Below, piece by piece: positions 9,257-50,990 of a DNA stretch of 64,000 bases; positions within the stretch are counted from its first letter, which is position 1, and every line of letters starts with the position of its first letter. Below the pieces are notes generated by a model, which had not been told where the DNA came from, made no database searches, and saw nothing but the letters and a program-made list of their open reading frames with translations. Position numbers and translations under genes: made by a program. This DNA comes from Rhodobacterales bacterium (lineage in GTDB: Bacteria; Pseudomonadota; Alphaproteobacteria; Rhodobacterales; Rhodobacteraceae): positions 289,014 through 353,013 of the forward strand of contig CP180347.1 in the NCBI GenBank assembly GCA_048007995.1, given 5' to 3'.

Positions 9257-9289
9257 CTTCTTATTTCCCACAATACTCCCGCCGGAGGC
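9257..9289 (+). repeat. Dispersed intergenic repeat, copy A
   Basis: CTTCTTATTTCCCACAATACTCCCGCCGGAGGC, 15 bp after the hydrolase stop. Confidence 0.85.
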
Positions 9290-9321
9290 TCAGGTCCCAC
9301 CACCGCCACGCAGGCCCGCCA

Positions 9322-9348
9322 TTGGCAGACCGGTCACAAACCCTATCT
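9322..9348 (+). promoter_or_regulatory. Putative sigma32-family promoter; probable leaderless mRNA
   Basis: TTG-N18-CTATCT ending 7 nt before ATG 9356; no Shine-Dalgarno visible. Confidence 0.4.
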
Positions 9349-9355
9349 ATGCACC

Positions 9356-10366
9356 ATGGCGGATGTGCTGACCTTCACCGAAAGCGGGATCTACTGCCCC
9401 GCGGGCGATTTCTACATCGACCCCTGGCGCCGTGTGCCACGGGCGCTGATCACCCACGCGCATAGCGATCACGCGCGCTGGGGGATGGACAGCTATCTCG
9501 CCACCCCCACCACCGCCGCGGTGATGCGGCACCGGCTGGGCGATATCGCCGTGCAGACGATTGCCTATGACAGCGCCCTGCGCATCGGGGATGCAGTGGT
9601 GTCCTTCCACCCCGCGGGCCATGTGCCGGGATCGGCGCAGATCAGGGTGGCGGTCAAAGGGCAGGTCTGGGTCGTCTCGGGCGATTACAAAACGGTGGAT
9701 GACGGGCTGTCGGAACCCTTTGCCCCCGTTCCCTGCCATGCGTTCATCAGCGAATGCACCTTCGGACTGCCGGTTTTCAACTGGACGCCGCAGGATGTAC
9801 TGCGCGACCAGATCAACCGCTGGTGGGCCGAAAGTGCCGCTGCAGGCAAGACCGCGATCCTTGGGGCCTATGCCTTGGGCAAGGCGCAAAGGCTCTTGCG
9901 CCTGCTCGACACGGACATCGGCCCAATCTTGACGCATGGGGCGGTGGAAAACACCAACGAGGTCTTGCGCGGCATCGGCATCCCCCTGCCCGCCACGACC
10001 CGCGCCGATGCTGCCATCACCGGCAAAACCCACCCCGGCGCTTTGGTGCTGGCGACACCTGCCGCGCTTGGCACGCCCTGGGCGCGGCGGTTCGGGCCGT
10101 CCTCGACCGCCTTTGCCAGCGGCTGGATGGCCCTGCGCGGCGTGCGGCGCAGGCGGGCGGCGGACCGAGGGTTCATCGTATCGGACCATGCCGATTGGGC
10201 CGGGCTGAACGCGGCGATCACCGCGACGGGGGCAGAGAAAATCTTTGTCACCCATGGCTATACCACCGCCTTTCAGCAATGGCTGCGCGATCAGGGCCAT
10301 GACGCCCATACCGTCAGCACGGATTATCAGGGCGAAGGGTTCGAAAGCGGCGAGGATGCGGCATGA
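9356..10366 (+). CDS. Ligase-associated DNA damage response exonuclease (metallo-beta-lactamase/beta-CASP-like)
   Basis: GDFYIDPW, ITHAHSDHAR, PAGHVPGSAQ, ISECTFGLP, SDHADW motifs. Confidence 0.93.
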   Translation: MADVLTFTESGIYCPAGDFYIDPWRRVPRALITHAHSDHARWGMDSYLATPTTAAVMRHRLGDIAVQTIAYDSALRIGDAVVSFHPAGHVPGSAQIRVAVKGQVWVVSGDYKTVDDGLSEPFAPVPCHAFISECTFGLPVFNWTPQDVLRDQINRWWAESAAAGKTAILGAYALGKAQRLLRLLDTDIGPILTHGAVENTNEVLRGIGIPLPATTRADAAITGKTHPGALVLATPAALGTPWARRFGPSSTAFASGWMALRGVRRRRAADRGFIVSDHADWAGLNAAITATGAEKIFVTHGYTTAFQQWLRDQGHDAHTVSTDYQGEGFESGEDAA

Positions 10367-11952
10367 AAGCCTTTGCCGCCCTGTTCGCGCAACTCGACGA
10401 AAGCACCAAGACCAGCGTCAAGGTCGCGGCGCTGGCCGATTATTTCCGCACCGCGCCTGACAGCGACAAACTCTGGACCACCGCCCTGTTCACCGGACGC
10501 AGACCGAAACGGGTGATCACGGCCGCCAAATTGCGCCTCTGGGCGGCAGAGGTGGCAGGCCTGCCCGACTGGCTGTTCGAGGAAAGCTATAGCATCGTGG
10601 GCGATCTGGCCGAAACCATCGCACTCGTGCTGCCACCGCCGTGTGCGACCAGCGACGAAAGCCTGACCGACTGGATCATGCATCTGCGCGCCTTGGGCAT
10701 GCAGGATGACGACGCGCGCAAGGCCGGCATCATCGCTGCATGGGACCGGCTGCCGCCTGCGGAACGGTTCCTGTTTACCAAGCTCTTGACGGGCGGTTTG
10801 CGCATCGGGGTCAGCGCGAAACTGATGACCCGGGCGCTGGCACAGGCGACAGGCCAGCCGGAACCGGAGCTGACCCATAAACTGATGGGCAACTGGACGC
10901 CCGACAGCGTCACATGGGCCAGCCTGATCGAGGCGGATGATCCCGGCACCGACGCGTCGCGCCCTTATCCGTTCTATCTGGCTTACGGCTTGGAAGATCT
11001 GGCTGCCCTCGGCCCGCCTGCCGATTGGTCGGCGGAACGCAAATGGGACGGGATCAGGGGGCAGTTCATCCTGCGCGGCGGCAGCCATTACCTGTGGTCG
11101 CGCGGCGAAGACCTGATGACCGACCGCTTTCCCGAGCTTGCCCAGCTTTGCGACGCCCTGCCCGACGGCACCGTGATCGATGGCGAGGTGCTGGCCTTTG
11201 CGGGTGATGCCCCCCTGCCCTTTGCCGCTTTGCAAAAACGCATCGGGCGGAAAACAGTACCGCGCAAATTGTTGGCCGAGGCCCCCGTGATCCTGATGGC
11301 CTATGACCTGCTGGAACAGGACGGGCGCGACATACGCGCCTTGCCCTTTGCAGACAGACGCGCGGCCTTGGCGGGGCTCGTTGCGCGGGTGTCCACCCGC
11401 GCGCCCCTGCGGTTGTCACCGCAGGTGACGTTCAGCACCTGGGACGATCTGGCCGCCGCACGCAGCCAGTCGCGGGATGTGGGGGCCGAAGGGCTGATGC
11501 TCAAACGCCACGACAGCCCCTATCTGGCCGGGCGCAAGAAAGGTGATTGGTGGAAATGGAAGGTCGATCCGCTGACCATTGATGCCGTGATGATCTATGC
11601 GCAATCGGGCAGCGGGCGGCGGGCCAATCTGTTCACCGATTACACCTTTGCCGTGCGCGATGGCGATGCAATGGTCCCCTTCACCAAAGCCTATTCCGGC
11701 CTGACCGATGCCGAATTCCGCCACATCACTGCTTGGGTGCGCAAGAACACATTGCAAAAATTCGGCCCCGTCCGGCAGGTGCCGCCCGTGCATGTGTTCG
11801 AGATCGCCTTTGAAGGGATCAACGCAAGCCCGCGGCACAAGTCAGGTGTTGCCTTGCGGTTTCCGCGGATGCTGCGCTGGCGGCAGGACAAACCCCTGGC
11901 CGAGGCCAATACGCTCGACGATCTGCGCGAAATGCTGCGGCTTTACGGCTGA
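10363..11952 (+). CDS. ATP-dependent DNA ligase (DNA-damage-response type)
   Basis: Adenylation motif KWDGIR, IDGE, EGLMLK, WWKWK, SGVALRFPR; ATGA overlap with the exonuclease gene. Confidence 0.93.
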   Translation: MKAFAALFAQLDESTKTSVKVAALADYFRTAPDSDKLWTTALFTGRRPKRVITAAKLRLWAAEVAGLPDWLFEESYSIVGDLAETIALVLPPPCATSDESLTDWIMHLRALGMQDDDARKAGIIAAWDRLPPAERFLFTKLLTGGLRIGVSAKLMTRALAQATGQPEPELTHKLMGNWTPDSVTWASLIEADDPGTDASRPYPFYLAYGLEDLAALGPPADWSAERKWDGIRGQFILRGGSHYLWSRGEDLMTDRFPELAQLCDALPDGTVIDGEVLAFAGDAPLPFAALQKRIGRKTVPRKLLAEAPVILMAYDLLEQDGRDIRALPFADRRAALAGLVARVSTRAPLRLSPQVTFSTWDDLAAARSQSRDVGAEGLMLKRHDSPYLAGRKKGDWWKWKVDPLTIDAVMIYAQSGSGRRANLFTDYTFAVRDGDAMVPFTKAYSGLTDAEFRHITAWVRKNTLQKFGPVRQVPPVHVFEIAFEGINASPRHKSGVALRFPRMLRWRQDKPLAEANTLDDLREMLRLYG

Positions 11953-49242: not shown

Positions 49243-49634
49243 TATGTCCTGCGCATTGCTGTCTGAAGCTGTTTTTCCACTTGCCCCATCTTGTCAAGCG
49301 TCTGCACCATCTGCGCGCGCAGGCGCCGCATCTCTTGCATCAGGGCTGCCACATCGGCGGGGATTTCGGTGGCATCATCGGGGGCGGCCAGCCCGTCGCC
49401 CAGCCCGGTCATCAACCAGCCCAGCGATACGCCCAGCATTCCTGCCAGCATCTGCAGCCGGTTGGCGCGCGGTTCGCCCGTGTCATTTTCCCAAGATACC
49501 AAGGTTGCGAACTTGACGCCCAGCGACTTGGCAAGGTCTTTCTGGCTCAGCCCTGCGGCTTCGCGCGCGCCTGCCAGCCTGTCGCCAAAGGTCGCGGCCT
49601 CGGGGCTGTACCAATCGCTGTCTGTTTCGGTCAC
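49242..49634 (-). CDS. XRE-family HTH regulator with C-terminal coiled coil
   Basis: TFGDRLAGAREAAGLSQKDLA, SWENDTGEPRANRL; TAATG coupling to sdhE. Confidence 0.88.
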   Translation of the reverse strand: MTETDSDWYSPEAATFGDRLAGAREAAGLSQKDLAKSLGVKFATLVSWENDTGEPRANRLQMLAGMLGVSLGWLMTGLGDGLAAPDDATEIPADVAALMQEMRRLRAQMVQTLDKMGQVEKQLQTAMRRT

Positions 49635-49714
49635 ACGGGACTCCTTGGTTCTTGCTAAGCTTGCTCGCCTCGTCTTATGTCACGGATAGTGCAATTTGAC
49701 CACCGGACATCCCC

Positions 49715-50917
49715 ATGGCTTTTCTGTCTGCGACGCTTGATCGCGTCAAACCCTCGCCCACCATCGCCGTCACCACCAAAGCGGCTGAATTGAAAGCAGC
49801 GGGGCGCGACATCATCGGCCTTGGCGCCGGAGAGCCGGATTTCGACACGCCCGAGAATATCAAGGCCGCCGCCGTGCAGGCGATTGCCGAGGGCAAGACG
49901 AAATACACCGCCGTTGACGGCATCCCCGAGCTGAAACAGGCGATCTGCGCCAAGTTCAAGCGCGACAATGCGCTAAACTATGACCCCGCGCAGGTCACCG
50001 TCGGCACCGGTGGCAAGCAGGTGCTGTATAACGCTTTCATGGCGACGCTGAATGCGGGTGACGAGGTGATCATCCCTGCGCCATATTGGGTCAGCTACCC
50101 TGACATGGTGCTGCTGGCAGGCGGCACGCCCGTCACGATCGAGGCGACGCTGGAGGCCGCGTTCAAGATCACCGCCGACCAGCTGGAGGCGGCGATCACG
50201 CCCGCGACCAAGTGGTTCCTGTTCAATTCGCCGTCCAACCCGACAGGCGCGGGGTATTCTTGGGATGAACTGAAAGCCCTGACCGATGTGCTGCTGCGCC
50301 ATCCGCACGTCTGGGTGATGACCGACGACATGTACGAACATCTGGCCTACGGCAATTTCAAATTCTGCACGCCTGCGCAGGTCGAACCGCGCCTTTATGA
50401 CCGCACGCTGACGGTCAATGGCGTGTCCAAGGCCTATGCGATGACCGGCTGGCGGATCGGCTATGCGGCAGGGCCGGAAATGCTGATCAAGGCGATGCGC
50501 AAGGTGCAGTCGCAATCCACATCCAACCCCTGTTCGGTCAGCCAATATGCCGCGGTCGAGGCCTTGAACGGCACGCAGGATTTTCTGGCGCCCAATAACG
50601 CGCTGTTCGAACGCCGCCGCGATCTGGTGGTCGATCTGCTGAACAGCGCGCCCGGCGTGGTCTGCCCGCGCCCCGAAGGCGCGTTTTATGTCTATCCTTC
50701 CATCGCGGGCTGTATCGGCAAGACCAGCGCCGCTGGCGTGCTGATCGACAATGACGAAACCTTTGCCGCGGCCTTGCTGGAAGAAACCGGCGTGGCGGTC
50801 GTGTTCGGCGCGGCCTTTGGCCTGTCGCCCAATTTCCGCGTCAGCTATGCCACATCAGATGCGGCGCTGCAGGAGGCGTGCAAACGTATCGTCGGTTTTT
50901 GTGAAAGCCTGCACTAG
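49715..50917 (+). CDS. aspC: Aspartate aminotransferase (class I PLP)
   Basis: [37 protein letters not shown]. Confidence 0.9.
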
Positions 50918-50965
50918 CGCGCAAAGCGGGTGTTCAGCCAAAGGCGGGCGCGCGCTGCGCGCCGC

Positions 50966-50990
50966 GCGGGAGTATTTTGGACAAAGCGAA
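50966..50990 (-). repeat. Dispersed intergenic repeat, copy H (variant)
   Basis: Reverse complement TTCGCTTTGTCCAAAATACTCCCGC with a GCGC-rich tail; between convergent aspC and 2-hydroxyacid dehydrogenase genes. Confidence 0.65.

Follow-up and report, generated by a model that had tools for sequence, protein, structure and literature searches.

What are the eight short repeats that lie between genes in a 64,000-nucleotide stretch of a Rhodobacterales genome, and what keeps them in place? The stretch, hereafter the window, covers bases 289014-353013 of a single-contig genome (C1; 3.17 Mb, 60.3% GC) from the Yoonia (formerly Loktanella) vestfoldensis clade, and an earlier reading of its letters alone (the original prediction) had seen in these repeats a mobile element similar to repetitive extragenic palindromic (REP) sequences, with a conserved AT-rich head and interchangeable GC-rich tails, that might double as a portable terminator. 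We find that the repeats belong to a family, called A/B/C here after its three core types, that is specific to the Rhodobacteraceae. Its units are inherited vertically at fixed sites, right after stop codons and chiefly between convergent genes; between distant lineages their AT-rich box changes in concert, and a given site can have its whole unit or its tail exchanged for another. The reading that we favour, with a probability of about one half, is that of a Rhodobacteraceae-specific mosaic gene-end element, comparable to the bacterial interspersed mosaic elements (BIMEs), with a sequence-constrained AT-rich box, a putative partner acting in trans and rare, episodic spread.

All eight copies were recovered where they had been reported in the window (9257, 13829, 14916, 26355, 32409, 36161, 45777 and 50966), but they do not form the single homogeneous family that had been supposed. 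Compared in the orientation from GC tail to AT-rich core, they split into three core types: A, GGAGTATTTTTGGAAATAAGAAG, with 59 copies genome-wide; B, GGGATATTTnnnCTCGGAAGATG, with 107; and C, GGAGTATTTTGnACAAAGCGA, with 19, against 0, 1 and 0 matches, respectively, in the reversed genome. The 23-mer GGAGTATTTTTGGAAANAAGAAG, with up to 3 mismatches allowed, matched the window four times where 100 shuffles gave an expectation of 0.00. Chance and low complexity were ruled out by these shuffled-window and reversed-genome counts of 0-1. The total of about 185 copies corresponds to 1 per 17 kb, and the estimate of about one per 8 kb made from the window does not hold for the genome.

The position of the units relative to genes, for which gene coordinates were taken throughout from a crude, home-made codon-usage gene finder, is far from random. 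Convergent gaps hold 66 of the 154 intergenic copies (43%) versus 15% of junctions (p ~1e-16), divergent gaps hold only 12 (p = 0.009), and in tandem gaps 49 copies are oriented with transcription and 27 opposed to it (p = 0.015). Altogether, 115 of the 154 are directed away from the end of an upstream gene, and in about two-thirds of cases the core edge is 0-15 nt from the stop codon of the gene on the opposite strand. The eight window copies all lie between called genes and each adjoins at least one stop codon, as originally described. Another 31 copies were called intragenic, which is probably due to over-extension of open reading frames (ORFs), one strand of the core being free of stop codons. 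Both orientations, already noted in the window, are about equally frequent in the genome. Replichore polarity was considered and rejected, as 107 of 185 copies (58%) are co-oriented with replication versus 54% of genes, and the lack of such a bias argues against a role like that of Chi or of the polar KOPS motifs.

The sites themselves are stable between close relatives. All 55 informative A copies of the sister genomes have an orthologous copy in this genome and all 25 orthologous comparisons started from B or C copies of this genome were occupied; the approximately 80 comparisons with sister genomes (flank identity 78-97%) thus revealed no empty site, and the clean presence/absence of the element that had been anticipated at orthologous junctions was not observed among them. 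At the A sites, which were ascertained on exact copies in the sisters, identity is 96.0% for the core versus an average of 84.0% for the flanks (84.5% over the upstream 60 nt and 74.2% over the downstream 40 nt), and in the B/C set, which is unascertained, it is 96.1% identical versus 90-93% for the surrounding sequence. The constrained part of the unit is therefore its unstructured AT-rich box, whereas the GC modules gain, lose and swap hairpins. Tails differ at orthologous sites, and units are replaced at fixed positions: this genome combines tail a with a B core at position 723321, and the metagenome-assembled genome (MAG) RGIG994 has tail b followed by a C-type core there, with the same upstream hairpin directly before the unit in both. 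Likewise, Yoonia TsM2_T14_4 carries a long, palindrome-bearing B form at two sites that have the short form in this genome. Such replacements of units at fixed sites provide a direct route to the switching of lineage-specific versions described below.

Across the Alphaproteobacteria, the 19-mer GCCTCCGGCGGGRDTATTT is present in 102 of 151 Rhodobacteraceae genera, often in tens of copies and with 0 control matches, and in none of 199 genomes from about 188 other families. It also occurs on Rhodobacteraceae plasmids and chromids, always within unannotated DNA, and the phage records searched gave chance-level matches only. The lineage-wide spread that had been proposed is thus confirmed, and takes the form of lineage-specific versions: the last 12-14 bases of the unit, after TATTT, are uniform within one genome and particular to a lineage. 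We refer to these versions as dialects (examples after TATTT are GAGCAAAAGATG, GACACATGATG, GGACGAAGAAAG and GGCAAGATGATG, and GGACACGAAAGA is that of Paracoccus versutus). The exact A core is common to Y. vestfoldensis DSM 16212, Yoonia sp. TsM2_T14_4, Yoonia sp. 67-2 and several Loktanella/Yoonia MAGs, and 30 other Yoonia species lack the exact A and B cores, as do other families. Six other Yoonia contain 34-48 copies of the 11-mer GCCTCCGGCGG, a GC module of the family, and only 1-3 units in the 64-68 kb syntenic with the window. No description of the family was found in the searched literature on Rhodobacteraceae/Roseobacter repeats or in Rfam. On the 1.74-Mb replicon pTAV4 of Paracoccus versutus (NZ_CP035287.1), we counted 16 units of the Paracoccus dialect GCCTCCGGCGGGGATATTTGGACACGAAAGA, several of which form facing pairs with cores 22-29 bp apart.

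The anatomy of the units is modular. The AT-rich end box, of type A, B or C, is 20-23 nt long; the information content of aligned copies shows a sharp outer (3') edge, at AAGAAG or AAGATG, and varying modules on the 5' side. A GC mini-palindrome is kept family-wide (GCC-TCC-GGC-GG, with the variants GCGC-TCC-GCGC-GG and GCGC-GCC-GCGC-GG). The 5' side is made up of recurrent GC modules (GCCTCCGGCGG, often with AAAAACTTTnnn before it, GCGCTCCGCGCGG and GCGCGCCGCGCGG) and of optional hairpin modules (GGGGCnnnGCCCC, GCGGCwwwGCCGC or CCGGAn5TCCGG, then TCACCCC); AAAAACTTT is a further recurrent module. Identical tails pair freely with A, B or C cores. Seven composites of 95-121 bp consist of a reverse-complemented A core, 2-4 hairpins and a B core; their A-core and B-core ends are about 65% alike as inverted repeats, most copies of the family being one-ended, and in five convergent gaps two units face each other so that each gene has one forward-pointing unit. 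A 30-nt perfect palindrome, CGTCAAATCGCGC-nnn-GCGCGAATTGACG, is confined to five B cores (at C1:1236902, 1336346, 2015768, 2450870 and 3052094), always at one fixed point between GGGGAT and GCTCGGAAGATG. A mini-ORF reading of the unit (ATG CCT CCG GCG GGG ATA TTT, MPPAGIF...), in which the GGGATA/GGAGTA difference would be Gly-synonymous plus Ile/Val, was rejected, as only a minority of copies have the ATG and no stop recurs consistently.

In the window, the tails that had been described were found again, namely (C)CCGCCGGAGGC at 9257, 13829, 14916, 32409 and 45777, the hairpin ACGGGGC-AGC-GCCCCGT at 26355, a GCGC-rich tail at 50966 and none at 36161. The eight units are as follows:

9257..9289, minus strand: A unit, core 9257-9279 (GGAGTATTGTGGGAAATAAGAAG on the minus strand) and tail GCCTCCGGCG at 9280-9289; between two plus-strand genes, 15 nt past the stop of the 8303-9241 gene; also in the Loktanella MAG RGIG5662.

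13829..13863, plus strand: A unit, tail GCCTCCGGCGGG at 13829-13840 and core GGAGTATTTTTAGAAATAAGAAG at 13841-13863; occupies the 57-nt gap of convergent genes; kept in RGIG5662 and Yoonia TsM2_T14_4; a weak 5-bp terminator-like match.

14913..14957, minus strand: B unit (the 14916 copy), core 14913-14934 (GGATATTTTTTCTCTGAAGATG on the minus strand); as tail it has the loop and 3' arm of a hairpin of 12 bp (14931-14957), ATCCCCGTCGGAGCCTCCGGCGGGGAT, with ATTTTTT after it; between two minus-strand genes.

26355..26399, minus strand: A unit, core 26355-26377, then GGGGT and the hairpin ACGGGGCAGCGCCCCGT at 26383-26399; fills almost all of a 51-nt convergent gap, directly after the TGA of the 24360-26354 gene; present in RGIG5662, missing at the same junction in five distant Yoonia.

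32409..32441, minus strand: B unit, core 32409-32430 (1 mismatch to the consensus) and tail GCCTCCGGCGG at 32431-32441; between two minus-strand genes.

36161..36188, minus strand: degenerate A core without GC tail, reading TGAGTATTTTGAAGAAATGAGAATGAAG on the minus strand.

45777..45809, plus strand: A unit, tail GCCTCCGGCG at 45777-45786 and exact consensus core at 45787-45809; between two plus-strand genes.

50957..50989, plus strand: C unit (the 50966 copy), tail GCGCGCCGCGCGG at 50957-50969 and core GAGTATTTTGGACAAAGCGA at 50970-50989; between convergent genes.

These sites allowed a more distant comparison, with five Yoonia species that are syntenic with the window at 72-77% identity, and it is only at this distance that differences in occupancy appear. 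The sites at 32409, 45777 and 36161 are occupied in distant Yoonia, each by a unit in the dialect that the host uses genome-wide: the 32409 orthologues in all five species are in host dialects (for example GCCTCCGGCGGAAGTTTGATTGGACATGGAAAG), and the 36161 site holds a host-dialect unit in four distant Yoonia and is empty in one genome (G011). The 45777 unit is identical in Y. vestfoldensis DSM 16212, where its flanks are 86-87% identical; among the distant orthologues, one genome (G008) has the tail GCCTCCGGCGG and another (G007) the tail GCGCGCCGCGCGG, each with the core of its own dialect, and two (G014 and G016) are partly deleted. The sites at 26355, 9257, 13829 and 50966, four of the eight, are unoccupied in the distant Yoonia.

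With regard to transcript ends, the 14913-14957 copy reads as a clear intrinsic terminator: its 12-bp GC hairpin is followed by a T run (-23.3 kcal/mol, z = -2.67), and the orthologues in 10 other Yoonia keep a hairpin and T run with compensatory changes in the stem. Type-d tails similarly form a 6-7-bp GC stem directly before GUAUUUUU. The original idea of a portable terminator stands for this subset only, since most single units fold like their shuffles (z = 0.06-0.8); a simple terminator scan flagged four of the eight window copies, three of them with stems of only 5-6 bp. A conserved RNA helix between AAAAACTTT and the GGAAG end was rejected: G-U pairing is possible, but covariation is absent from the bases in between, and the pairing partner is missing in other genera. 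A promoter or transcription factor box (sigma-70, ECF, CtrA, LexA, Irr or IHF, compared by eye) was likewise discarded, there being no convincing match and no hit of the promoter scan at the units. Searched with Rfam 15, the window gave only two tRNAs at the gathering score, 17113-17186 (minus strand) and 47689-47760 (plus strand), and the region 13780-15010, at E values up to 5, gave a single chance-level match (nhaA-II, 19.7 bits versus a threshold of 70.4 bits).

As for mobilisation, the absence of a transposase holds for the window, but the genome encodes two REP-associated tyrosine transposase (RAYT) genes outside it, at 2343703-2344131 and 466406-466837; the one scanned with the NF047646 profile scored 182.7 bits. 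In the REP/RAYT system, the repeat unit is a 20-40-nt imperfect palindrome (PMC3333891), 5' of whose foot a GT(A/G)G tetranucleotide is conserved (PMC3333891, PMC2817692), and inverted copies of this repeat stand on either side of the RAYT gene (PMC2817692). The neighbours of the two RAYT genes (C1:2343540-2344131 and C1:466406-466900) are indeed GTAG-headed palindromic REPs, GTAGGGTGCGCAnnnTGCGCACCC and GTAGGGTGGATTnnAATCCACC, with repeats of the form GTAGGGTGCGCA...TGCGCACCC and GTAGGGTGGATT..AATCCACC; for GGTGCGCA...TGCGCACC, the repeat whose copies were counted, the genome contains only about six, and both REPs are unrelated to the A/B/C units. The latter flank neither RAYT gene, the nearest unit being more than 13 kb from the first and about 5 kb from the second, so that the suggestion of a RAYT gene flanked by the same motif was not borne out. 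The GTAG REPs and their RAYT are a second, classical REP system that coexists with the A/B/C family. Among 150 genera, RAYT is present in 27 of 67 genomes with at least five 19-mers and in 20 of the 83 that have fewer (odds ratio 2.1, p = 0.05, kinship being ignored), and 40 of the 67, including the six richest (G161, G152, G114, G140, G061 and G092), have none. No target-site duplication was found at the seven composites, as had been noted for the window copies, nor at the 36161 site compared between filled and empty states, and an arrangement like that of an insertion sequence was rejected because no pair of cores brackets a transposase-sized gene. The different REPs at the RAYT genes, the lack of target-site duplication and the lack of a bracketed transposase together set the family apart from the REP/RAYT definition. 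There is no sign of current mobility, and the statement that no characterised mobiliser is known for these repeats stands.

The family nevertheless resembles the REPs and BIMEs of Enterobacteriaceae and Pseudomonas in being short, extragenic, present in more than 100 copies and located at gene 3' ends, in being a mosaic of few modules that include GC hairpins, with single units and composite inverted arrangements, and in that some copies may terminate or stabilise transcripts. Gilson et al. 1987 are said to have found the consensus of palindromic units to be species-specific, which the dialects recall. By contrast with REPs, the best-conserved part of the A/B/C unit is not an imperfect palindrome but an unstructured, asymmetric, AT-rich 22-mer, only the accessory modules being hairpins; its consensus has no GT(A/G)G head (neither GTAG nor GTGG); many element-rich genomes lack RAYT, and the RAYT genes of this genome are flanked by other REPs; and the family is limited to the Rhodobacteraceae, with one 19-mer across more than 100 genera. 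A BIME is a mosaic of few recurrent motifs in which inverted hairpin units are separated by linkers (PMC3333891), and the A/B/C family corresponds to it in architecture only, its motifs being unrelated in sequence to those of E. coli BIMEs. BIMEs also bind IHF, DNA gyrase or Pol I, and in the A/B/C units no IHF consensus was seen by eye.

According to the reading that we favour, the element would serve as a gene-end boundary module. Its GC hairpins and T-rich tract may end or stabilise transcripts, with full effect where the hairpin is complete, and its unstructured AT-rich box would be the recognition site of a putative sequence-specific partner acting in trans; this partner, or recombination between copies, could keep the copies of one genome alike. 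Spread would be rare and episodic, by copying or replacement next to gene-end hairpins, and not by ongoing cut-and-paste or RAYT-type transposition. The class assigned originally, a non-coding, REP/BIME-like gene-end repeat with an asymmetric AT-rich end and interchangeable GC-rich modules, is supported. Several points weigh against this reading: 27 tandem copies are oriented opposite to transcription; single units with the common tails a and c form no stabler fold than shuffled sequence does (z = 0.79 and 0.06), and the T run of the B core is only 3 T's long, with 11-13 nt between it and the strong upstream hairpin; stem mismatches (13 G-T versus 20 A-C) show no asymmetry, so that selection on an RNA of one strand is not visible and was rejected as an explanation. 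Moreover, the location figures depend on the gene finder, the concerted change at orthologous sites on three sites of the window, and the effect of the units on transcripts is predicted from their sequence; the partner of the AT-rich box is hypothetical.

The units could instead be selfish and non-autonomous, that is, miniature inverted-repeat transposable elements (MITEs) or REPIN-type elements mobilised in trans by a RAYT or other HUH enzyme acting on the GC hairpins, or by a DDE transposase for which the AT-rich ends would be terminal inverted repeats, with any terminator effect as a by-product. This we consider possible but unlikely. It would agree with the difference in abundance (some 185 copies here against 34-48 copies of the 11-mer in six other Yoonia and 1-3 units in their syntenic regions), with the four unoccupied window sites and the one shared site that is empty in G011, with the imperfect inverted ends of the composites, with the palindrome nested at a fixed point of the B core, which sister genomes have in a long or a short version at one and the same site, with the replacement of whole units at fixed sites, and with the two RAYT genes and their weak positive association with the 19-mer. 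The composites, intergenic, non-coding and about 100-120 bp long, with imperfect inverted ends, internal hairpins and possible terminator or RNA-processing effects, also recall the Correia elements of Neisseria and the enterobacterial repetitive intergenic consensus or intergenic repeat units (ERIC/IRU). These MITEs, however, differ in their target-site duplications, their related autonomous insertion sequences and their presence/absence polymorphism between close relatives, and the A/B/C units are mostly half-units. The approximately 80 sister comparisons without an empty site, the composites without target-site duplication, the different, low-copy GTAG-type REPs at both RAYT genes, the element-rich genomes that lack RAYT and the pairs of cores that never bracket a transposase-sized gene all speak against such an element, and a conservation of the core far above that of its neutral surroundings is unexpected for dead selfish copies. 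That the units are plain intrinsic terminators, alike by convergence or by homogenisation of a hairpin and T run in a GC-rich genome, seems improbable to us. The 14916 copy is a textbook case, the 3' arms of its orthologous terminators (GGCGGGGATTTTT) resemble the conserved module, the type-d tails supply a GC stem before GUAUUUUU, and the enrichment and forward bias at gene 3' ends fit; a GC-rich element between the A-rich AAAAACTTT and T-rich TATTT tracts, placed between convergent genes, further resembles a bidirectional terminator, and the 14916 copy fits the definition of a terminator. Yet the central stem is of 3-5 bp in most copies, most units have no stable stem adjoining the T run, the terminator scan flagged only four window copies, three of them with short stems, and 27 tandem copies are reversed. 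An exact 19-mer in 102 genera and 12-14 conserved bases past the T run cannot be explained by convergence, the best-conserved part being the unstructured box downstream of that run, and the sequence is conserved well beyond structural need.

A signal under molecular drive that marks DNA as self, like the DNA uptake sequences (DUS) of Neisseriaceae and the uptake signal sequences (USS) of Pasteurellaceae, and that serves DNA uptake, packaging by gene transfer agents (GTAs) or recombination, is the least probable of the explanations considered. It shares with these signals a core conserved family-wide with lineage dialects around it, orthologous positions that carry the dialect of the host, inverted pairs at gene ends, positional stability without a dedicated transposase and about equal orientations; the extended USS has a GC core followed by two AT tracts, which the A/B/C layout recalls. 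The four largest unit-free stretches of this genome (C1:1322253-1546425, 2182686-2371653, 2934175-3104507 and 166812-286853; 120-224 kb) have a GC content of 0.56-0.58 versus 0.603 for the genome; they may be acquired islands, and low GC is what is expected of foreign DNA. Nonetheless, DUS and USS occur roughly once per kb, a density more than 10-fold that of the A/B/C family at 1 per 17 kb, and coding sequence is almost free of A/B/C copies. The units are much longer than DUS or USS and modular, with hairpins, one genome contains three cores and several GC modules side by side, replichore polarity is absent and the link to competence or GTAs is hypothetical. Scarcely more probable is a related, bolder proposal, in which the AT-rich box and the GC mini-palindrome would form the signal of a Rhodobacteraceae-specific DNA-handling system (uptake, recombination or GTA packaging) that drives homogenisation, the repeats marking core-genome DNA as self. 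It would jointly explain dialect switching at fixed sites, the lack of a transposition signature and the missing units in the low-GC islands.

The Rhodobacteraceae, with the roseobacters, Paracoccus and Rhodobacter among them, count as major marine bacteria and as model organisms, and intergenic repeat systems of theirs are described neither in the literature that we searched nor in Rfam. The A/B/C family combines restriction to one bacterial family, a 19-mer that is exact in more than 100 genera, a constrained yet unstructured box and concerted lineage change at fixed sites, an unusual combination that points to a putative sequence-specific partner or mechanism of copying. Should a binding protein or an enzyme that copies the units come to light, REP-like repeats would have a second, RAYT-independent model for their maintenance. 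In practice, units mark the ends of genes and operons and can thus assist annotation, all the more as gene callers can run into units because one strand of the core lacks a stop codon; they also distinguish the core genome from acquired DNA, and the dialects can be used as lineage markers.

Two further observations concern the genes around window units. An A unit (plus strand) and a B unit (minus strand), their cores pointing inward, stand on either side of the ~1-kb gene at 13879-14859 (minus strand), and both units are kept in the sister genomes. In the distant Yoonia, a plain terminator is found on the B side and 360-920 bp of other DNA at the junction on the A side, a state of the 13829-14957 region which indicates that the bracketed gene does not look like a mobile cassette. 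At the 9242-9355 and 50918-51052 junctions, where this genome has only a unit, five other Yoonia have extra DNA, ~1.37 kb at the former and ~1.4 kb at the latter or about one gene, suggesting that units sit at points of gene gain or loss.

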